Positions 43,104-60,542 are shown, numbered from the stretch's first letter. The stretch: 64,000 bases of DNA from an uncultured delta proteobacterium (GCA_963766715.1 CAVYBH010000012.1:352001-416000); one strand, 5' to 3'. The notes: a model not told the origin generated them from the letters alone. Numbers and translations: made by a program.

Positions 43104-44644
43104 GTGGCCGGCGCCCTGATGCTGGCCGCGATCGCGGCCTTCGCCTTCGTGGAGATGGCCATCGCCCGGCAGCGCCTGGCCGGGGTGAACGCCTCCACCG
43201 CGCTCCTCAGCGAGACCATCTCGGCCTCGGTTCGCCACGCCATGATGCGGGACGAGCGCGGCGAGGCCTACGCCATCATCGACAACATCGGGCGCCAGTC
43301 CCAGATCGCCCACATCCGCATCATCAACAAGGAGGGGCGGATCACCTTCTCCACCGTCCCGGGCGAGAAGGGGACGCTCGTCGACAAGCGGGCCGAGGGG
43401 TGCCGCGCCTGCCACGAGGGGGAGAACGAGAGCCTCACGGTCCCGGTCGACGCCCTTCGCGCCCGGATCTACGAAGGGCGGGGCGGGCGGGTGCTCTCCA
43501 CGGTGACGCCCTTCCGGACCAGTCCCGATTGCACGACGAGCGCCTGCCACGTGCACCCCAGGGAGAAGACGGTGCTCGGGGTCCTCGACGTGGGCGTCTC
43601 GCTCGCCCCGGTCGACCGCGACCTGGCGTCCTTCCGGCGGGTCAGCCTCATCGTCACCGCCATCCTCGCCCTGCTGCTCGGTGCGTTCTTCTGGTACGTG
43701 GCCAACCACCGGGTGGTCCGTCCGGTGGAGGCGCTCGTGCAGGCCACGCGCCGGGTGGCCCACGACGAGCTCGACACCGAGATCCACATCGACGCCAAGG
43801 GCGAGCTGGGCCTGCTGGCGGCCTCGTTCAACGAGATGATCCGCTCGCTGCGGCGGGTGGAGGGAGAGCTCCGCCTGCTCACCGAGCAGCTGGAGGAGAA
43901 GGTCGAGGAGCGCACCGGCGAGCTCCGGGCCGCCCAGGACACGCTCGTGCGCACCGAGAAGCTCTCCTCCTGGGCAAGCTCTCCGCCTCCATCGCCCACG
44001 AGATCAACAACCCGCTGGCGGGCATCCTCACCTTCGCGAAGCTCATGATCCGGACCATCGAGCACGGACCGGTGGGCGAGGCCGAGCGGCGCACGCTGGT
44101 GAAGCAGCTGGCGCTGGTGCAGCGGGAGACCGAGCGCTGCACGGCCATCGTCCGCAACCTCCTCGACTTCGCGCGGGAGCGTCCGCTGCAGCTCAAGGAC
44201 GTGGACGTGAACCAGGTGGTGGACGAGGTCTTCTCCCTGGTGGCGAACCAGACCGCCATCCTCGGGGTGCAGGTGGAGAAGGACCTGGCCAAGGTCCCGA
44301 TGGTGGACGCCGACTTCGGGCAGCTCCGCCAGGCCTTCATCAACATCGTGATCAACGGCATCGAGGCCATGGGCAAGGGGGGGCACCTCCGGGTCGCCAC
44401 CCGGCCCCTGCCCGAGGAGGACGCCGTCGAGATCACCTTCCAGGACGACGGGCCCGGCATCCCGCCCGAGCTGATGCAGAAGATCTTCGATCCCTTCTTC
44501 ACGACGAAGGAGAAGGGCACCGGGCTGGGACTGTCGGTCGTCTACGGCATCGTCGACCGCCACAAGGGACGCGTTTCGGTGGAGAGCGAGCCGGGCAAGG
44601 GCACACGCTTCACCATCCAGCTCCCGGCGGCGCGCGGGTCGTGA
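43104..44644 (+). CDS. Sensor histidine kinase with periplasmic heme-c motifs and HAMP (frameshift near 43968; start uncertain)
   Basis: CRACH and CTTSACH between two TM helices; IAHEINNPL, DPFFTTK, GTGLGL. Confidence 0.9.
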
Positions 44645-44645
44645 C

Positions 44646-45175
44646 GTGGAGGCCATACACCTTTGGTGGATCGGTGAGAAGGATCCCGGCCTCAGGACGC
44701 TCGAGCACGTCCGCCTGCACCTGGAGCGCGCCCTGGGCGCGCCGGCGCGCATCTGGGACGACCCCGAGCGGCCGCCCGACGCCTACGACCACCGGCGGAA
44801 GCAGTGGTCCACGGCGCGGATCCTGGCATGGCTCGGGAAGGCCGGGCCTCCCGGCAAGGTGCTCGCCGTGACCGACCAGGACCTCTTCATCCCCATCCTC
44901 ACGTTCGTCTTCGGCGAGGCCCAGCTCAACGGAAGGGCGGCGGTGGTCTCCACCGCCCGGCTCGGGGAGCCCGGGCTTCCCGATCCCCGCGTGGCGCTCG
45001 AGCGGCTCGCCAAGGAGAGCGTCCACGAGATGGGGCATTGCTTCGGGCTCGTCCACTGCGACAGCCCGGGGTGCGTCATGGGGCGCTCGCCGAGCGCCCG
45101 GGACGTCGACAAGAAGCGCGGAGAGTTCTGCACCCGGTGTCGAGGCCGCATCATGCGGAGCGGGGGAGAGGGTCA

Positions 45176-45179
<4 letters not shown>
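44646..45179 (+). CDS. Archaemetzincin-family (M54) Zn metalloprotease
   Basis: FVFGEA, HEMGHCFGLVHC (HExxHxxGxxHC), CVM Met-turn, FCTRC. Confidence 0.88.
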
Positions 45180-46561
<1,382 letters not shown>

Positions 46562-46876: not shown

Positions 46877-46891
46877 TGGCCCACCCCTTGC
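46877..46891 (+). promoter_or_regulatory. Sigma54 (-24/-12) promoter of the redox operon
   Basis: TGGCCCACCCCTTGC: GG-N10-GC, 25 bp before the ATG at 46916, right after a bEBP gene. Confidence 0.75.
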
Positions 46892-46915: not shown

Positions 46916-47140
46916 ATGACTTGCCCGTACCTCACCGAAGTGACGATGGTCTTCTGCCAGGCATCTCCGCAGAAGAAGCTCATCCCCAGCGACCGGATCA
47001 GCACGGCGTCGGCCTGCGAGGGAGACGCCTTCAACGGCTGCGCCCTGTACCGCGAGGCCCTGGCCCGAGCCCTCCACACCATCGAAGAGCTCGAGACCGA
47101 GATCAAGGCCTCGACGGAGAAGAAGGGGGCGCACTCGTGA
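46916..47140 (+). CDS. Small Cys4 protein (74 aa), unknown function
   Basis: GGAGGAGG RBS; MTCPYL..FC..SAC..GCALY with a C-terminal coiled-coil-like tail. Confidence 0.75.
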   Translation: MTCPYLTEVTMVFCQASPQKKLIPSDRISTASACEGDAFNGCALYREALARALHTIEELETEIKASTEKKGAHS

Positions 47141-47205
47141 TCGCCGCCACCGCCCTCGCAGCCGCTGGACTGGTCGTCGTCGGATTCATCAACTGCATCC
47201 CCTGA
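47137..47205 (+). CDS. Putative 22-aa hydrophobic micropeptide
   Basis: GTG overlaps the previous TGA (GTGA), purine-rich RBS; MIAATALAAAGLVVVGFINCIP*. Confidence 0.45.
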   Translation: MIAATALAAAGLVVVGFINCIP

Positions 47206-47231
47206 CCAAAGCGAAGCACGGAGAGAACACC

Positions 47232-48146
47232 ATGAAGCTCGGCAGACGAACCTTCCTGCAGATCGCCGGCGCAACGGGAACCGCGGCACTCGTCACCCTC
47301 CCGGGGCGGGCGCAGGCGAACGGCACCATTCCCATCGCCGGCGAGGACGAGAGCTCCGTCCTCGTCGACACCACCAAGTGCGTCGGCTGCCGCGGCTGCG
47401 AGGCCGCCTGCGCCGAGGCCAACAAGCTGCCCGACCCGCCCACCGACGGCGCGGCCTTCGCGGCCATGCGCCCCACCGGTCCCGACTGCTTCACCGTCGT
47501 GAACCGGACCGAGAAGCGGGACGGCACGCCGCGGTACGTGAAGCGCCAGTGCATGCACTGCGTCGAGCCGGCCTGCGCCTCGGCCTGCCCGGTCCGCGCG
47601 CTCGACAAGCAGGCCACCGGCCCGGTGTCCTACGACGGCAGCAAGTGCATGGGCTGCCGCTACTGCATGGTCGCCTGCCCGTTCTCGGTGCCCAAGTACG
47701 AGTACAACTCGGCGCTGCCGGTGGTCCGCAAGTGCACGTTCTGTGCGGGCCGCCAGGCCGAGGGCAAGCGCCCCGCCTGCATCGGCGTCTGCCCGAGCGG
47801 CGCGCTCACCTACGGGACGCGCGGCCGGATGGTCGAGGAGGCGCGGCGCCGGGTGTACGGCAACCCGGACAAGTACACGCAGCACATCTACGGCGAGCAC
47901 GAGGCCGGCGGGACGAACTGGCTCTACATCACGGACGTCCCGTTCGAGAAGCTCGGGTTCGAGGTCGCCGTCAACGACAACTCCTACCCGAAGCTGGTCA
48001 AGGGCGCGCTCGGCGTGCCGCCGGTGGTCATGACGCTGTGGCCGCCGCTCCTGATGGGGCTCTGGGCGTTCTCACACCGCGACAAGAGCAAGTCGCACGA
48101 CACCGATCACGGCGGCGGCAAGGCCGACGGAGGCAACCATGTCTAG
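47232..48146 (+). CDS. Tat-exported 4x[4Fe-4S] protein (HybA/HmcB/NrfC-like) with C-terminal TM anchor
   Basis: GRRTFLQ Tat motif; CVGCRGCEAAC, CMHCVEPAC, CMGCRYCMVACP, CTFC..PACIGVCP; YGEHEAGGT. Confidence 0.92.
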   Translation: MKLGRRTFLQIAGATGTAALVTLPGRAQANGTIPIAGEDESSVLVDTTKCVGCRGCEAACAEANKLPDPPTDGAAFAAMRPTGPDCFTVVNRTEKRDGTPRYVKRQCMHCVEPACASACPVRALDKQATGPVSYDGSKCMGCRYCMVACPFSVPKYEYNSALPVVRKCTFCAGRQAEGKRPACIGVCPSGALTYGTRGRMVEEARRRVYGNPDKYTQHIYGEHEAGGTNWLYITDVPFEKLGFEVAVNDNSYPKLVKGALGVPPVVMTLWPPLLMGLWAFSHRDKSKSHDTDHGGGKADGGNHV

Positions 48147-49363
48147 CATCGTGACCACGACCACCCCCGAGCGCTCGGGCGGTTGGGTCCAGGAGCGCAT
48201 CTTCCTCGGCATGACGTTCCGGGAGTACCTGAAGTCCCTCTGGACGCCCTTCAACATCGTCTGCGCGGCCATCCTCGCCGTGGGCCTGCCGGTGATCTTC
48301 TTCCGGTTCTACCTGGGGCTGGGCGCCACCACGAACCTCTCCCAGACCCAGCCGTGGGGTCTCTGGATCGGGTTCGACATGATGACCGGCATCGCGCTGG
48401 CCGCCGGCGGGTTCACCATCGGTGCGACGGTGGAGATCTTCGGGCTCGAGGAGTACCACGCCATCGAGCGGCCGGCGATCCTGACCGGCTTCCTCGGCTA
48501 CATGATGGCGGTCATCGGCCTCATCGCCGACCTGGGCAAGCCCTGGAACATGGTCGGCATCTTCTCCAACAACGGGACGCAGTCGGTCCTCTTCGAGGTC
48601 GCCTGGTGCGTGTGCTGCTACACCACCGTCCTCATGCTGGAGTTCGCCGTGCCGTTCTTCGAGTGGCTGGGCTGGGAGCGCTTCTACCGCCCGCTCAAGA
48701 AGGCGCTGCTCGCCCTCACCGTGCTGTCCGTCATGTTCTCGACCATGCACCAGTCGGCGCTCGGCTCGCTCTTCATCATCGCCCCGGGCAAGCTCCACCC
48801 GCTCTGGTACTCCAGCCAGATCTTCCTGTTCTTCTTCATCAGCGCCATGATCGCCGGCATCTGCATGGTCATCGTGGAGAGCACCATCTCCCACAAGGTC
48901 TTCTCCGAGCAGTTCAAGGGGCAGCACATCGACGTGGAGAAGCTCTCCATCGGCCTGGCCAAGGCCGGCGCGGTGGTGATGTTCGCCTACTTCTTCCTGA
49001 AGCTGCAGGGCGTCATCGACAACCACGCGCTCGGGCTCATCGGAGTCGGCTTCTACGGCAAGTGGTTCCTGGTGGAGATGCTGGGCTTCGTGCTGCTCCC
49101 CTCGCTGCATGTTCGCCTGGGGCGCCCGGAACGAGAAGATCCTCCCGGTGCGCATCGCCGCCATCCTGGGCGTGCTCGGAATCGTCCTCAACCGGCTCAA
49201 CGTCTCGCTCATCGCCTACAACTACAACCAGCCGGTCCGCTACTGGCCCAGCTGGATGGAGGTGTCGGTCTCCCTGATGCTGGTGGTGGTCGGCATCCTG
49301 GCCTTCCGCTGGATCGTGAACCGCATGCCCGTGCTCCGGCCGCTCCCTGGCGCGGAGCACTGA
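48139..49363 (+). CDS. NrfD/PsrC-family integral membrane quinone-interacting subunit (HybB/HmcC-like; frameshift near 49105)
   Basis: PWGLWIGFD, ALAAGGF, DLGKPW, SVLFEVAWC, STMHQSALGSL, KLHPLW. Confidence 0.92.
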
Positions 49364-49370
49364 GGACGCC

Positions 49371-50060
49371 ATGCACGGCAACGAATTCCTGAGCGGGTAC
49401 GCCGCCAAGCTGGTCGAGTACGGGCTGGCGGTCACCTACCTGGTCCTGTTCGTGGGCTTCTGGCGCTACGTGCAGGGCGGCAAGGGGGCCGAGCGGGCGG
49501 TCGAGGTGGCCGAGCCGGAGCAGGCCGTGGCGACCGGGTGGTTCTCGGTGCCCACCGGCGTGGCGCTCCACCCGGGTCACACCTGGGCGCGGATGGAGGC
49601 CGACGGCTCGGTGGCCGTCGGGCTCGACGACCTCGGTCACCGCCTCGTCGGCGACGTGGACCGGGTGACGCTCCCGGCCCGGGGAGCCCGGGTGGAGCAG
49701 GGAGAGCCCGCGGTCTCGCTCGCCGCAGGGGGACGGAGCGTGAAGGTCGTGTCCCCGGTGGACGGGGAGGTCATCGCCTACAACTCCGCCCCGGACACGC
49801 ACGACGACCCGTACGGCCAGGGCTGGCTCTTCCGGGTCCGCCCGGAGAACTGGAAGCGCAGCCGCGCGCAGCTCCTGGAGGGAGCGGCGGCGCGCGAGTG
49901 GCTCGAGGAGCAGGGGCGGCTGCTCGCCTCCCGCCTGGGCTCCGAGCCGGTGCCCGTCCTCCAGGACGGCGGCGCCCCGGTTCACGGCATCGCCCGCGAG
50001 ATCGACCCGGAGCACTGGGACGCCATCGCGCGAGAGTTCTTCCGCACGCAGGAAACCTAG
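49371..50060 (+). CDS. Membrane-anchored GcvH-like protein 1, lipoyl Lys absent
   Basis: N-terminal TM; HPGHTWA, VGLDD, SPVDGEV, DDPYGQGWL; C-terminal LQDGG..W..EFF. Confidence 0.85.
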   Translation: MHGNEFLSGYAAKLVEYGLAVTYLVLFVGFWRYVQGGKGAERAVEVAEPEQAVATGWFSVPTGVALHPGHTWARMEADGSVAVGLDDLGHRLVGDVDRVTLPARGARVEQGEPAVSLAAGGRSVKVVSPVDGEVIAYNSAPDTHDDPYGQGWLFRVRPENWKRSRAQLLEGAAAREWLEEQGRLLASRLGSEPVPVLQDGGAPVHGIAREIDPEHWDAIAREFFRTQET

Positions 50061-50069
50061 GGGACAGAC

Positions 50070-50415
50070 ATGACCATCCAGGGAAAGACGTTCCGCCTCC
50101 TCGCCGTCCTCGCCTCCGCGGTGCTGGCCACCGCGGCGGCCGCCGACGGGCTCGAGAAGCTGCCGCCCGACTACACCTTGCCGCAGTCGGAGGGCAGCCC
50201 GGGCAAGGTGATCTTCAGCCACTCGAGCCACGTCGACGTGAAGGCGCCGGGCTGCACCCGGTGCCACCCCAAGCTCTTCAAGACCCTCGAGAAGGGCGCC
50301 ACGGCCGACGGGCAGCGGATCACGCCACAAGGTCATGGAGGCTGGCGGCCAGTGCGGAGCCTGCCACGGGAAGGCCGCCTTCAACTTCGAGAGCTGCGAC
50401 CTCTGTCACCGGTAG
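50070..50415 (+). CDS. Triheme cytochrome c7-type protein (frameshift near 50325)
   Basis: Signal peptide, VIFSHSSH, CTRCH; CGACH and CDLCH in the shifted frame. Confidence 0.85.
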
Positions 50416-50419
50416 TGTC

Positions 50420-51118
50420 ATGGCCCCGGCGCTCGACCTGCTGACCGCGATGGGCGTCTTCCTGGCCGGGCTCCTCGCCCGGCTGGGAATCGTGGTGGGG
50501 GTCCTGCTCCTCCTGGCGGTGCCGGTGGCCTTGCTGGGCGGCGGCGTGCGGGCCTTCCGCGCGCTGCGGCTCCGGGCGATGGGCTACCGGAGCGCCGGGG
50601 CGCTCCGCTTCCGGGATGGCCTGCGCTACGCGCCGGGCCACACCTGGATCCGGCCGGACGGGCAGCGCTTCCGCGTCGGGCTCGACGACCTCGCCCAGAA
50701 GCTCCTGCCCTGGGCGGTCGCCGTGGAGTTGCCGCGCCCGGGCCAGCCGGTGCAGGCGGGGGAAGCCGTGGCGCGGATCTCCTGCGGTGGCCAGGAGGCG
50801 CGGGTCGCCGCCCCGTTCTCGGGCCGGATCGTCGCGATCAACACCGACGTCCTGGGCGAGCCGACGCTCGTGAAGAGCGAGAGCTACGGCCGGGGCTGGC
50901 TGTTCGCGATCGAGCCGGTCGACGGGGCCTGGAGAGGGTTGCCCGACGGCGAGCGCGCGCGCGGCTGGATGCGCGAGGAGGGCGAGCGGCTGGCGCGCTT
51001 CTACGAGCAGCACCTCGGGTACGCGGCGGCGGACGGGGGCGATCTCGTCGGCCCGCCCGCGTCGCTCCTCGGGGAGTCGGGGTGGAGGGCGCTGACGCGG
51101 GCCTTCCTCCGGACCTGA
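50420..51118 (+). CDS. Membrane-anchored GcvH-like protein 2, lipoyl Lys absent
   Basis: N-terminal TM; YAPGHTWI, VGLDD, APFSGRIVAIN, SYGRGWL; C-terminal AADGG..W..AFL. Confidence 0.85.
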   Translation: MAPALDLLTAMGVFLAGLLARLGIVVGVLLLLAVPVALLGGGVRAFRALRLRAMGYRSAGALRFRDGLRYAPGHTWIRPDGQRFRVGLDDLAQKLLPWAVAVELPRPGQPVQAGEAVARISCGGQEARVAAPFSGRIVAINTDVLGEPTLVKSESYGRGWLFAIEPVDGAWRGLPDGERARGWMREEGERLARFYEQHLGYAAADGGDLVGPPASLLGESGWRALTRAFLRT

Positions 51119-51141
51119 AGACGTTGTGGTGCGGGAGGGGT

Positions 51142-51175
51142 GGGGCGCTCCCGAAAGGGAGCGCCCCTGTTTCTT
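51142..51175 (+). terminator. Rho-independent terminator
   Basis: GGGGCGCTCCC-GAAA-GGGAGCGCCCC perfect 11-bp stem followed by TGTTTCTT. Confidence 0.85.
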
Positions 51176-51433
51176 GCGCAAGCTCGCGCGAATTCCTTGC
51201 GTCGCCGGGCCCGTTCCAGGGTTCCGGCGCGCGGTTCGTGCGTCTTGGGGCACCAGGCCCAAGTCGACTGGATGGGTCCATGAAGAAAACCGAATTTGCT
51301 CGGCAAAATCATGGCTGTCGACGATCGTTACCCTGGCTTGGCGCCGAGGGATCTGCTACAGGCGTCGAGGCCGAACCGACGGTCCGTCGTCCATGCATCC
51401 CGGATGGGCGTGCGAGACCAGGGGGTAATCGTG

Positions 51434-52474
51434 ATGAAGAGGTTCTTGCTGGCGCTCGTGGTCGCTCTCGTGGCCACCGCGGGGCGCGCAGAGATCCCTG
51501 CCGAGCAGGACAGCTGCCTGGGCTGCCACGGCAGCGACCCGTCCATGTCGATGGACCTGCCGAGCGGCGAGAAGCTCCCGCTCTACGTGGACCAGGCGCA
51601 CTTCGGCAAGTCCGTGCACGGCGACATGCTTCGCTGCACCGACTGCCACACCGACAAGGGCGACTACCCGCACGAGTCGAAGCCCTTCAAGACCCGCCGC
51701 GACGTCACGGTGGCCTATTACGAGCAGTGCAAGAAGTGCCACTTCTCGAACTACACGAAGACGCTCGACGGCGTTCACTACCAGCTCGCGCAGAAGGGCA
51801 ATCGCCAGGCCGCGCTCTGCGTCGACTGCCACGGGTCGCACGGCATCGGCCGGCCGGGCGAGCCCCGCACGCGGGTCTCCGAGACCTGCTCGACCTGCCA
51901 CAAGGAAGTGTTCGAGGTCTACAAGGGCAGCGTGCACGGCAAGGCCGTCACCCAGGGCAACGGCGACGTCCCGGTCTGCACCGACTGCCACCGCGCGCAC
52001 GACGTGGCCGACCCGCGGGCCGGCGCGCTGTCGCTGCGCACCGCCGAGATCTGCGGCCGCTGCCACACCGACCAGAAGCTCATGAAGCGCTACGGGCTCT
52101 CCACCAACGTGGTCGACAGCTACCTCTCCGACTTCCACGGCATGGCGGCGTCCCTGCAGAAGGGCAAGAAGGGCAAGGGCGATCGCCTCGCGGCAGGCTG
52201 CACCGACTGCCACGGGGTGCACGACATCCAGCGCCCCAACGACCCGCGCTCGTCGGTCATGCAGGCGAACCTCGTGAAGACCTGCGGCAAGTGCCACGTG
52301 GGCGCCACCGCCGACTTCCCCAAGGCCTGGATGTCCCACTACGAGCCCAGCCTGAAGAAGTCGCCGCTCGTGTGGAGCGTCCAGCTCTTCTATTACATCC
52401 TCATCCCGTTCATCCTCGTCAGCCTCGCCATCCAGATCGCGCTGCACCTCTGGCGCGTCGTGGTGAACCGATGA
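51434..52474 (+). CDS. Nonaheme cytochrome c with C-terminal membrane anchor
   Basis: Signal peptide MKRFLLAL..; CLGCH, CTDCH, CKKCH, CVDCH, CSTCH, CTDCH, CGRCH, CTDCH, CGKCH. Confidence 0.92.
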   Translation: MKRFLLALVVALVATAGRAEIPAEQDSCLGCHGSDPSMSMDLPSGEKLPLYVDQAHFGKSVHGDMLRCTDCHTDKGDYPHESKPFKTRRDVTVAYYEQCKKCHFSNYTKTLDGVHYQLAQKGNRQAALCVDCHGSHGIGRPGEPRTRVSETCSTCHKEVFEVYKGSVHGKAVTQGNGDVPVCTDCHRAHDVADPRAGALSLRTAEICGRCHTDQKLMKRYGLSTNVVDSYLSDFHGMAASLQKGKKGKGDRLAAGCTDCHGVHDIQRPNDPRSSVMQANLVKTCGKCHVGATADFPKAWMSHYEPSLKKSPLVWSVQLFYYILIPFILVSLAIQIALHLWRVVVNR

Positions 52475-53233
52475 GCGGCGACTCGGCAGGGGTGGGAGAA
52501 TCCGGCGTGAGGAGCGCGACGATGAGCGACGAGGCGGTGAAGGAGCGGGCGTCCTACCTGATGCGCTTCACGGCGGCGCAGCGCGTGGAGCACTTCATCA
52601 CCATGATCGACTTCGTGGGGCTCGTGGCCACCGGCCTGCCCCAGAAGTTCTACACGGCCAAGTGGGCGCAGTGGGTCATCGGCCTGATGGGCGGGATCGA
52701 CAGCGTCCGGTGGGTCCACCGCTTCTTCGGCGTGGTCCTCATCTTCGCGGTCGTCTGGCACGGCATCGGGGCCCTGCGGGCCATCCTCTCCCGCAAGGTC
52801 GGCTTCAGCATGGCCGTGAACAAGCGCGACTTCAGCGACGCGGTCCAGACGCTCCGCTACTACCTGGGCCTCGAGGATCACCCGGCCGCCTTCGACCGCT
52901 ACGACTACAAGCAGAAGTGGGAGTACTGGAGCCTCATGATCGGCAACGTGATCGATGATCCTCTCCGGTCTCACGCTGATGTACCCGACCATCGTGGCCC
53001 GCCTGGGGCCGGGCGAGATCATCCCGGCCGCCAAGGTCGCGCACTCGAACGAGGGGCTGATGGCCTTCCTCGTCATCACGGTCTGGCACGTCTTCAACGC
53101 CCACCTGCACCCGGACGTCTTCCCGTTCGACGCGTCGATCTTCACCGGGAAGATCAGCCGCGAGCGCATGGAGCACGAGCACCCGCTCGAGCTGGCGCGC
53201 GCCGAGGGACGGGAGCCCTCCGGCCACCACTAG
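52471..53233 (+). CDS. Di-heme cytochrome b (FdnI/HydC-like) membrane subunit (frameshift near 52954)
   Basis: RFTAAQRVEH, TGLPQ, HRFFG, YKQKWEYW, AHSNEG, WHVFNAH, MEHEHPLE. Confidence 0.88.
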
Positions 53234-53245
53234 GCCGGGCCGCGC

Positions 53246-54238
53246 ATGACCGGCCAGAGGTGGATGGACTTCGCCGGCCAGGCGATCTTCCACACGCTGG
53301 TCGCGGCGCTGGTGATCGAGGCGCTGGTGCGCCTGTGGGGCGTCCGGGAGCCGCTGCAGCGGACCGGCTTCCGCCTGCTCGCGCTGGCCTGGCCGCTGAT
53401 CGTGGTCCCGGCGCTCTTCCTCCTCTTCCCCGGCCGGGAGGGCGAGGCCTTCCGGGACGCCCGGTCCCTCTTCGCGGGGCACCACTGGAACGACCTGTCG
53501 TTCCTGGGCATCGGCCTCTACGCCTGGTGGATCGCGGGGATGGCGGCGATGGGGCTCGCCCTCTTCCTCCTCGACCTCGTCCCCTGGCTCCGGGCGCGCA
53601 GCGCGGAGCCGCCTCCCTGGCTGGCGCGGAGCGCGGAGGGCGAGCGGGCCCTCGAGGCGCTCGCGCGCGCCGCCGCCTCCCTGGGCATGGAGGCGCCGCC
53701 GCTCGTCTTCGTTCCCGATGGGCCGCCGGTGCTCTACTGCACCGGGACGCGCCGCCCGTCGGTGGTCATCTCCCGCGGGGCGGTCGACCTGCTCGACCCC
53801 GCCGAGCTGACCTGCGCGCTGGCCCACGAGCTGGCCCACCTGGAGCGCCGGGACCCGGCGCTCTCCTGGGCGCTCATGGGGGCTCGCGCGCTCATGTGGT
53901 TCAACCCCGGCGTGCAGGTCCTCGTCCGGGCGCTGGCCCGCGACGCCGAGCGGGTGGCCGACGAGCGCGCCGCCGCTGCGAGCGGGGACCGGCTGGCGCT
54001 GGCGAGCGGCCTGCTCCAGCTCTACCGGGCCACGGAGGGGCGCATCCCGTCCCGCGCGGCCGAGCCCTTTCCGCTCTCGGCCTCGCTCGCCGAGCCCATC
54101 GCCCGGGCCCGGGCCCACGACATCGAGCAGCGCTGCAGGGCCCTCCTCATCCCCCCGCCCGAGCCGGTGCGCCTGGCGGGCCTGCGGTTCGCCGCCGCGG
54201 CGGGCGGCCTCGGCCTGCTGCTGTTCTTCGTGGTATGA
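53246..54238 (+). CDS. BlaR1/M56-like membrane Zn metallopeptidase
   Basis: TM helices, LAHELAHLERRD, WFNP, ERVAD. Confidence 0.85.
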   Translation: MTGQRWMDFAGQAIFHTLVAALVIEALVRLWGVREPLQRTGFRLLALAWPLIVVPALFLLFPGREGEAFRDARSLFAGHHWNDLSFLGIGLYAWWIAGMAAMGLALFLLDLVPWLRARSAEPPPWLARSAEGERALEALARAAASLGMEAPPLVFVPDGPPVLYCTGTRRPSVVISRGAVDLLDPAELTCALAHELAHLERRDPALSWALMGARALMWFNPGVQVLVRALARDAERVADERAAAASGDRLALASGLLQLYRATEGRIPSRAAEPFPLSASLAEPIARARAHDIEQRCRALLIPPPEPVRLAGLRFAAAAGGLGLLLFFVV

Positions 54239-60527: not shown

Positions 60528-60542
60528 TGGCGCGCTCCTTGC
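60528..60542 (+). promoter_or_regulatory. Sigma54 promoter candidate for the third two-component system
   Basis: TGGCGCGCTCCTTGC (GG-N10-GC) 35 bp before ATG 60577; AAGTCACC-N8-GGTGACTT inverted repeat at 60486-60509. Confidence 0.6.

Follow-up and report, generated by a model that had tools for sequence, protein, structure and literature searches.

The question raised by this locus is what two membrane-tethered relatives of the glycine cleavage H protein (GcvH), both without the lipoyl lysine, are doing in a respiratory operon that encodes no catalytic enzyme. The operon lies on the plus strand of a 64,000-nucleotide stretch of DNA from an uncultured delta proteobacterium (GCA_963766715.1, CAVYBH010000012.1:352001-416000; G+C content about 70%). 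We refer to the whole stretch as the window; in our numbering of this genome, G000, it is C12:352001-416000. From the promoter on, the operon encodes a protein with four invariant cysteines (Cys4), a 22-residue peptide, a HybA/HmcB-like iron-sulphur protein, an NrfD/HmcC-like membrane protein, GcvH-like 1 (GcvH1), a triheme cytochrome c7 and GcvH-like 2 (GcvH2), and it ends in a terminator. The junctions from the HybA-like gene onward are either an 8-nucleotide overlap or gaps of 4-10 nucleotides. An earlier, sequence-only reading of the locus had named these elements, and the promoter, open reading frames (ORFs), protein families and terminator were each recovered where it had put them. It had further taken the unit for a membrane complex that links periplasmic haems to quinone, with the two GcvH-like proteins as subunits and with no catalytic subunit. 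Comparison with related genomes indicates instead that the GcvH-like genes do not encode core subunits: the peptide, GcvH1 and GcvH2 appear to make up a co-inherited accessory module, found either within the operon or standing alone. The operon is a widely conserved but uncharacterised respiratory unit, composed of a quinone-to-cytochrome module and this separable H-protein-fold add-on. A literature search on GcvH together with NrfD or c7 found no paper describing the cassette.

To assess conservation, one genome per species was scanned with a GcvH1 profile, which gave 401 loci; the counts that follow refer to the best 79 of these 401, sorted by tblastn with the window proteins. The 79 loci belong either to the Anaeromyxobacteraceae and related Myxococcota or to the Thermoanaerobaculia in the Acidobacteriota. 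NrfD, c7 and GcvH2 surrounded GcvH1 in the order of the window at 42 of the 79 loci, and the expectation that GcvH-like genes are kept beside NrfC/NrfD-type genes in other genomes was borne out in both phyla. GcvH2 was lacking at eight loci that had NrfD and c7, and c7 at two that had NrfD and GcvH2; at two more, NrfD alone stood beside GcvH1. One locus ran through NrfD and c7 to the end of its contig, and another had c7 and GcvH2 with the upstream side cut off by a contig end. Fifteen loci consisted of a GcvH1-GcvH2 pair in which NrfD was undetected (a contig end lay upstream in two of them), and eight consisted of a lone GcvH1.

A less biased sample was provided by 23 genomes of the family that had not been chosen by GcvH and were scored with both the GcvH1 and the NrfD profile. 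A full GcvH1 adjoined the NrfD orthologue in 17 genomes. Two had only a GcvH2-like gene, about 740 nucleotides downstream of the NrfD orthologue, and four had no full GcvH gene adjoining it. Five of these exceptions were retrieved. Three of them are operons from the genus of the window organism: at L088, L090 and L092 the order is Cys4, HybA, NrfD, c7 and a downstream bc cytochrome pair, with neither a GcvH gene nor the micropeptide, and the HybA start follows directly on the Cys4 stop. The encoded proteins are close to those of the window (NrfD 86-89% and the adjacent activator 91-94% identical). At the other two, L091 and L089, a 52-residue ORF between NrfD and c7 corresponds to the N-terminal helix of GcvH1 alone.

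The accessory genes are also found as units of their own. Of 12 pair-only loci, all 12 have a sigma-54 element 119-182 nucleotides upstream, followed by a near-identical 22-residue peptide, GcvH1 and GcvH2. Where GcvH1 has its own upstream region (11 loci, eight with a lone GcvH1 and three with NrfD further upstream), the promoter was present at nine and a related peptide at ten. On the plus strand of the loci, the micropeptide pattern is confined to the operon position and the stand-alone GcvH1 position. The window's own genome carries a second micropeptide-GcvH1-GcvH2 unit (C15:156522-157948, L081-L083), whose GcvH1 is 64% identical to that of the window and is also frame-broken. These stand-alone units, together with the GcvH-less operons of the same genus, argue against the earlier assignment of the GcvH-like proteins as subunits of the complex.

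GcvH1 (49371..50060; PF01597 2.2e-17, 63.6 bits against a cut-off of 22.2) starts with a membrane helix, from which a linker leads to a lysine-less H-protein barrel and a helical extension of 60 residues at the C-terminus. GcvH2 (50420..51118; PF01597 1.4e-19, 70.6 bits against the same cut-off) begins with a hydrophobic stretch of about 40 residues that contains an invariant arginine and probably forms a helical hairpin; an arginine-rich stretch, a lysine-less barrel and the same C-terminal extension follow. Neither reaches the GcvH equivalog model (57-64 bits against a cut-off of 116). When the lipoyl position was mapped by profile alignment to E. coli GcvH (3a8i_E), it was occupied by glycine in the window GcvH1, and by lysine in one of 35 GcvH1 proteins and none of 35 GcvH2 proteins. 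Cysteine is absent from 34 of the 35 GcvH1 proteins. The barrel fold is thus present and the lysine for lipoate binding is not, as the sequence-only reading had it. In the AlphaFold2 model of GcvH1 (predicted local distance difference test score, pLDDT, 86.1), a long N-terminal helix is joined by a disordered linker to the barrel, which is followed by a structured C-terminal helical extension. Foldseek matched the barrel to E. coli GcvH with an E-value of 6.6e-12, and the target template-modelling score was 0.84-0.86 for the E. coli and Thermus proteins; no match was returned for the model outside the barrel. Mean pairwise identity among GcvH1 proteins is 69% over the N-terminus and membrane helix, 63% over the barrel and 31% over the linker.

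Proteins of this type are numerous. The GcvH-like profile gave 9147 matches across the library, and 430 clusters (at 50% identity) at E<=1e-30, mostly of 220-245 residues and matched over their full length. A search of the ESM Atlas returned only GCV_H clusters, from Myxococcota, Bacteroidota and Acidobacteriota. Fourteen longer matches were scanned for additional domains. Two of them (P0263, P0307) consist of a signal peptide, four CXXCH motifs, a transmembrane helix and the GcvH-like part, and one (P0230) of a transmembrane helix and GcvH-like part followed by a further transmembrane helix and a c7 domain. One (P0275) joins a receiver domain to a GcvH-like part without a transmembrane helix, two (P0321, P0362) have a cysteine-rich N-terminal domain, one contains two GcvH-like units in tandem, and in six GCV_H was the only domain seen. 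The last, P0268 (1391 residues), combines three GCV_H domains with an FAD-linked oxidase, a 4Fe-4S dicluster and two CCG (HdrD-like) domains, and represents a different route for coupling H-protein folds to a redox enzyme. Because a periplasmic tetraheme cytochrome is fused through a membrane helix to the GcvH-like part, the N-terminus must lie outside and the barrel inside, which agrees with the cytoplasmic orientation proposed earlier. The fusions as a group suggest an adaptor or signalling role for the GcvH-like fold. No paper describing membrane-tethered, lysine-less GcvH proteins was found in the literature. Annotation pipelines label such genes "glycine cleavage system H protein", a label that is wrong for metabolic reconstruction.

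The core of the operon is a pair of proteins of the HybA/HmcB and NrfD families. The first (47232..48146; Fer4_11 6.6e-20) has the sequence RRTFL after its start, 16 cysteines in four motifs corresponding to four [4Fe-4S] clusters, and a C-terminal membrane helix. It thus has the features of a membrane-anchored polyferredoxin exported by the twin-arginine translocation (Tat) pathway, although its TAT_signal match (0.0037) is under the Pfam cut-off. Against the NCBIfam equivalog models it scored 337.3 bits for HmcB (cut-off 420) and 232.6 bits for HybA (cut-off 263), reaching neither. The second protein (48139..49363, in two frames) is a predicted quinone-binding membrane subunit. Its N-terminal part matches PF03916 (2.1e-11; 44.5 bits against a cut-off of 25.8); the HmcC equivalog NF045714 gave 337.7 + 85.2 bits for the two parts, short of its cut-off of 550, and the HybB model gave 217+42 bits. 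It is therefore a member of the NrfD family but not an HmcC equivalog. HmcB and HmcC were the top NCBIfam models for the two proteins, ahead of HybA and HybB. Judged by these scores, the quinone module is of a known kind but represents a new subfamily of it. With HmcB and HmcC as best models, homology also favours the earlier proposal that the HybA-like and NrfD proteins, with c7, link quinone to a periplasmic cytochrome.

We propose, with moderate confidence, that two things have been placed under one sigma-54 promoter: a menaquinol:cytochrome c oxidoreductase and a separable GcvH adaptor module that is probably docked on NrfD. The NrfD-like subunit would bind the quinone of a menaquinol:periplasmic cytochrome c oxidoreductase of the Hmc/Nhc/Cbc4 class, the Tat-exported 4x[4Fe-4S] protein would wire this subunit to the periplasm from its membrane anchor, and the soluble triheme c7 would serve as the point of electron entry or exit. 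The adjacent dihaem sensor kinase and NtrC-type activator would switch the module on. In the Anaeromyxobacteraceae, the module sits beside a CbcBA-like bc cytochrome, an arrangement that resembles the BccR-controlled low-potential branch of Geobacter. A small helix bundle probably anchors the 22-residue peptide, GcvH1 and GcvH2 in the membrane. When encoded in the operon, they probably dock on NrfD through the highly conserved GcvH1 helix; this helix is the candidate docking piece because it is the most conserved region of GcvH1 and because an ORF encoding it alone has been kept beside NrfD in two operons. The cytoplasmic, lipoate-free barrels would most likely be adaptor or regulatory outputs through which the state of the electron-transfer chain is reported or adjusted; a role for them as carriers of electrons or acyl groups is unlikely. 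Gene content, homologies, promoter, conservation, separability, the missing lysine and, by way of the fusions, topology are established, whereas the direction of electron flow, the docking on NrfD and the regulatory role are inferred. Of the earlier interpretation as a whole, the quinone-cytochrome module, sigma-54 control, the missing lysine and the cytoplasmic barrels are retained, and the fixed GcvH-like subunits are given up, as is the missing catalytic subunit as a distinguishing feature.

Several observations weigh against this proposal. The linkage to NrfD is inflated among the 79 loci, as these were selected by way of GcvH1, and the sample of 23 genomes is small and made up of kin. The genomes with GcvH-less operons (G237, G226, G075) have pair-only units elsewhere, so that the pair may be needed in trans and its dispensability is unproven. 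The HmcB, HmcC and HybA scores lie below the equivalog cut-offs, which makes the quinone module a distinct subfamily whose partners are deduced. Finally, an arrangement without any physical contact with NrfD would account just as well for the pair-only units and the GcvH-less operons.

The last point leads to the strongest alternative, in which the peptide, GcvH1 and GcvH2 form a membrane complex of their own, an autonomous signalling device that senses the redox state of the membrane or periplasm, relays it to a putative partner in the cytoplasm, and is co-regulated with the quinone module without being attached to it. Such a device would explain the stand-alone units with their own sigma-54 promoters (at 12 of 12 pair-only loci and nine of 11 where GcvH1 has its own upstream region), the fusions in which a receiver domain or a periplasmic tetraheme cytochrome is joined to the GcvH-like part, and the three operons of the same genus that lack it. 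It is less easily reconciled with the tight junctions of 4-10 nucleotides within the operon, the order NrfD-GcvH1-c7-GcvH2 at 42 loci in two phyla, or the GcvH1 helix-only remnants found exactly beside NrfD. As an account of the data it is nearly as good as docking on NrfD, and we regard it as possible if rather unlikely.

A more speculative idea, which we consider doubtful, is that the micropeptide and the lysine-less H-fold proteins constitute a new type of module for transmembrane signalling, controlled by sigma-54. The conserved helix bundle would then monitor the redox state of periplasmic cytochromes or of the quinone pool, and the cytoplasmic barrel with its DGG extension would be an output domain that binds a putative cytoplasmic target. 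One candidate is a partner of genuine H-proteins or of lipoyl domains; as a lipoate-free decoy, the module would then throttle carbon oxidation. Another is the sigma-54 activator, on which the module would exert feedback. A module of this kind would account for the fusions to receiver, cysteine-rich and tetrahaem cytochrome domains as well as for the stand-alone copies.

That both H-fold proteins are obligate structural subunits, core to a fixed six-protein complex that needs them, as scaffold or docking site, for its assembly or activity, is a distinctly improbable explanation. The synteny at 42 of 79 loci and in 17 of the 23 less biased genomes, and the strong conservation of the GcvH1 helix, would be expected of such subunits. 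Orthologous operons without GcvH-like genes (L088, L090, L092), the eight loci without GcvH2 and the units that occur with no NrfD nearby would not.

The window contains no NiFe hydrogenase or molybdopterin gene, the search not having been extended to NrfA; the nearest lie outside it, at G000:C12:335617 and C12:500959. The earlier statement that the unit has no NiFe hydrogenase or molybdoenzyme therefore holds for the window as a whole. Elsewhere, the genome has two NiFe hydrogenases and several molybdopterin genes. One of the hydrogenases is accompanied by a cytochrome b of its own, the other by a separate HybA-like gene with an adjoining HybB-like match. No catalytic gene is part of the conserved synteny in either phylum. 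The lack of a catalytic subunit is no anomaly but normal for the quinol:cytochrome c modules of the Hmc, Nhc and Cbc types: with the periplasmic cytochrome pool as its substrate, a module of this kind would need none. A review lists several complexes of the small cytochrome/polyferredoxin/NrfD type, with role unknown. The HybA-like and NrfD proteins might nevertheless be the membrane anchor of a hydrogenase or molybdoenzyme encoded elsewhere, which would make the operon one half of a known system, as the HybA and HybB scores given above and the presence of such enzymes in the genome would allow. We consider this very improbable, because the hydrogenase loci are provided with a cytochrome b or HybA-like and HybB-like partners of their own, the synteny is conserved without a catalytic gene, and a periplasmic redox partner, c7, is encoded in the operon itself.

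The c7 gene (50070..50415) encodes a signal peptide and three CXXCH motifs spread over two frames: CTRCH in the first, and CGACH and CDLCH in the next, which ends at 50415. The intact orthologue at L027 scores 63.7 bits against the TIGR04257 cut-off of 40 (TIGR04257/PF14522), which places the protein in the c7 family; the N-terminal part in the window scores only 27.8 bits because of the frame break. The frame jumps at about 50320 in c7 and at about 49105 in NrfD, where the N-terminal part covers 48139-49104 and the C-terminal part 49109-49363. In relatives, NrfD is a single ORF, of 402-415 residues in nearly all cases (there are three shorter ORFs and one read-through of 657 residues), and c7 is a single ORF of 110-118 residues, with three CXXCH motifs in all 57 called ORFs. 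In short-read contigs from near-identical strains, exactly one base is missing at each of two positions, 49108 (run X5) and 50325 (run X2), the X2 evidence being a piece of 184 nucleotides with two mismatches. The host assembly has 18 contigs and is 84.6% complete. Since the relatives are intact, the X5 and X2 contigs lack the bases and the host assembly is 84.6% complete, the breaks are read as assembly indels; the one-base insertions near 49108 and 50325 are probably errors, and the operon is probably intact in nature. To the view that the frameshifts are real and mark a decaying pseudogene cluster we give next to no weight, for although the unit has two breaks, with more in the nearby kinase and cytochrome b genes, at both positions it is precisely the extra base that is missing from contigs of other runs, few contigs and low completeness are typical of indel-rich long-read assemblies, and similar breaks occur in other long-read bins (L060, L070).

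Control of the operon by sigma-54, also part of the sequence-only reading, is supported by the promoter match, the adjacent activator and conservation of the element. The sequence TGGCCC-N5-TTGC at 46877-46891 (plus strand) corresponds to a -24/-12 element, and the Cys4 start codon lies 25 nucleotides on. The looser pattern TGGC-N7-TTGC occurs twice in the 64 kb window, against 1.15 expected by chance; the second match, TGGCGCGCTCCTTGC at 60528-60542 (plus strand), is a candidate for a further sigma-54 promoter. In front of the Cys4 gene, the element was found exactly in 31 of 38 relatives and with a relaxed pattern in 34 of 38, and the remaining four have TTGA or GTGG at the -12 position. The background frequency of the promoter pattern is 0.06 per 400 nucleotides. 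With GG at -24, GC at -12, the proper spacing, an activator gene next to it and conservation across relatives, the operon has the marks of sigma-54 dependence, as far as sequence can tell. A candidate activator site, GGCACCC-N4-GGGTGCC, lies 236 nucleotides upstream of the window promoter; it was rejected as a shared site as it is not common to the 55 promoter regions compared, and no inverted repeat recurred in more than four loci among them. At the other end of the operon, an intrinsic terminator (51142..51177) consists of a hairpin at 51142-51167, with an 11-bp stem containing 10 G-C pairs, followed by TGTTTCTT, a run of T. Contigs from an RNA library (run X17) cover parts of the HybA-like and NrfD genes at 90-98% identity, and the GcvH genes thinly; they stem from relatives and therefore provide no evidence for transcription of the window operon.

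The regulatory genes precede the promoter. The sensor histidine kinase (43104..44644; HAMP 1.7e-13, HisKA, HATPase_c 2e-30) has two CXXCH motifs (CRACH and SACH) between its two membrane helices, ahead of the HAMP, HisKA and HATPase domains. Because of this position, the kinase is probably a redox sensor with periplasmic c-type haem. Its frame is broken once near 44000 in the window assembly, probably through another assembly indel. The activator (45176..46561; Sigma54_activat 1.4e-71, Response_reg 2.3e-32, HTH_8 1.9e-17) is of the NtrC type, with receiver, AAA+ and HTH_8 domains. Between the two lies a gene for an archaemetzincin-like peptidase of family M54 (44646..45179; PF07998, 6.4e-22), which occupies the same place in Anaeromyxobacteraceae and Thermoanaerobaculia alike and is an unusual third member of a two-component pair. 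The synteny of kinase, M54 peptidase, activator and Cys4 gene is kept in both phyla.

The first gene of the operon encodes the Cys4 protein (46916..47140), a predicted cytoplasmic protein of 74 residues in which C3, C14, C34 and C42 are invariant. Scans of Pfam and NCBIfam families gave no match, and neither did Foldseek against the PDB at E<=0.001 with a model of pLDDT 70. A homologue search yielded 94 matches, in close relatives only and all hypothetical, and no bridge to Geobacter GSU0597. A relationship to the cysteine-rich N-termini of P0321 and P0362 was rejected (hhalign probability 0.2%). The 22-residue micropeptide (47137..47205) is a single membrane helix conserved in relatives; its GTG start overlaps the Cys4 stop, and a degenerate pattern for it occurs only once in the whole window. 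In a subclade of Anaeromyxobacter (L025, L034, L053, L056, L065, L067) the full operon and both GcvH-like genes are present, the micropeptide was undetected by pattern, and Cys4 and HybA are spaced by 22-25 nucleotides, an exception to the linkage of peptide and GcvH. L025 and L034 have a gap of about 450 nucleotides between NrfD and GcvH1.

Downstream of the terminator lie genes for a multiheme cytochrome c with nine CXXCH motifs and a C-terminal membrane helix, and for an FdnI-type cytochrome b (together 51434..53233); the frame of the latter is broken near 52950. They are followed by a gene for an M48/HtpX/BlaR1-like membrane zinc protease (53246..54238), which comes after the bc pair in Anaeromyxobacteraceae. 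At 25 loci of this family the operon is followed by the multiheme cytochrome, the FdnI-type cytochrome b and mostly the M48 protease, an arrangement not found in Thermoanaerobaculia. No sigma-54 element was found ahead of the bc pair in the window; candidate elements occur there in some of the relatives (eight loci looked at). At L089 (4270-6399, minus strand), the multiheme cytochrome and the cytochrome b are fused in a single ORF of 709 residues.

Metal- and electrode-respiring soil bacteria pick among inner-membrane quinol oxidoreductases according to the extracellular redox potential. To our knowledge, little has been established about how they sense which to use and how the choice is linked to metabolism. 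The cassette is notable in this respect because it is widespread, has its own haem sensor kinase and sigma-54 activator, and places an old carrier-protein fold, stripped of its cofactor, on the cytoplasmic side of the membrane. Should the H-fold module prove a regulator or adaptor, it would represent a new way to link respiratory electron flow with the cytoplasm.

How does the unit compare with systems already described? GcvH and the LbpA proteins of sHdr sulphur oxidation share with the window proteins the barrel fold and a PF01597 score above cut-off. Unlike them, the window proteins have no lipoyl lysine, are tethered to the membrane and carry a 60-residue C-terminal extension with an invariant DGG, and their genes are not near glycine-cleavage or Hdr genes. 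The HybA and HybB proteins of E. coli hydrogenase-2 resemble the window pair in that both families are matched and in the Tat signal and C-terminal anchor of the HybA-like protein. The differences are that the unit contains no hydrogenase, that a hydrogenase locus elsewhere has its own HybA-like gene, and that the scores are below the cut-offs.

Among Geobacter systems, Cbc4 (CbcSTU) of G. sulfurreducens combines a small cytochrome c, a 4x[4Fe-4S] protein and an integral membrane subunit, and has been proposed to be a quinol:cytochrome c oxidoreductase (bioRxiv 10.1101/2025.04.14.648717). The cytochrome differs: CbcS is a membrane-anchored tetrahaem protein of the NrfH/CymA type, whereas the window unit has a c7 with an apparently cleavable signal peptide and three haems. 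The cbcBA genes have a sigma-54 promoter, begin with two small hypothetical genes and need the NtrC-type activator BccR; homologues near such regulators have been noted in Anaeromyxobacter (bioRxiv 10.1101/2021.04.15.440034). CbcA and CbcB resemble the downstream bc pair in architecture, the comparison having been made without sequence alignment, and CbcA has seven haems against nine CXXCH motifs here. The portions of these reports available to us mention no GcvH-like gene with Cbc4 or cbcBA, and the relation of these systems to the window unit is one of architecture only.

The Hmc (HmcABCDEF) and Nhc (NhcABCD) complexes of Desulfovibrio share with the unit a periplasmic class-III-type cytochrome c, a Tat-exported 4x[4Fe-4S] protein of the HmcB type and an NrfD protein of the HmcC type. 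Both complexes also contain small hydrophobic extra subunits. Their cytochrome has 16 or nine haems, against three in c7, and the 16-haem HmcA, the cytochrome b HmcE and the CCG protein HmcF have no counterpart among the ORFs of the window unit. The window unit is further distinguished from Hmc and Nhc by scores below the equivalog cut-offs (337 against 420 bits for HmcB, and 423 summed against 550 for HmcC), by its sigma-54 and two-component control, and by the GcvH-like add-on.

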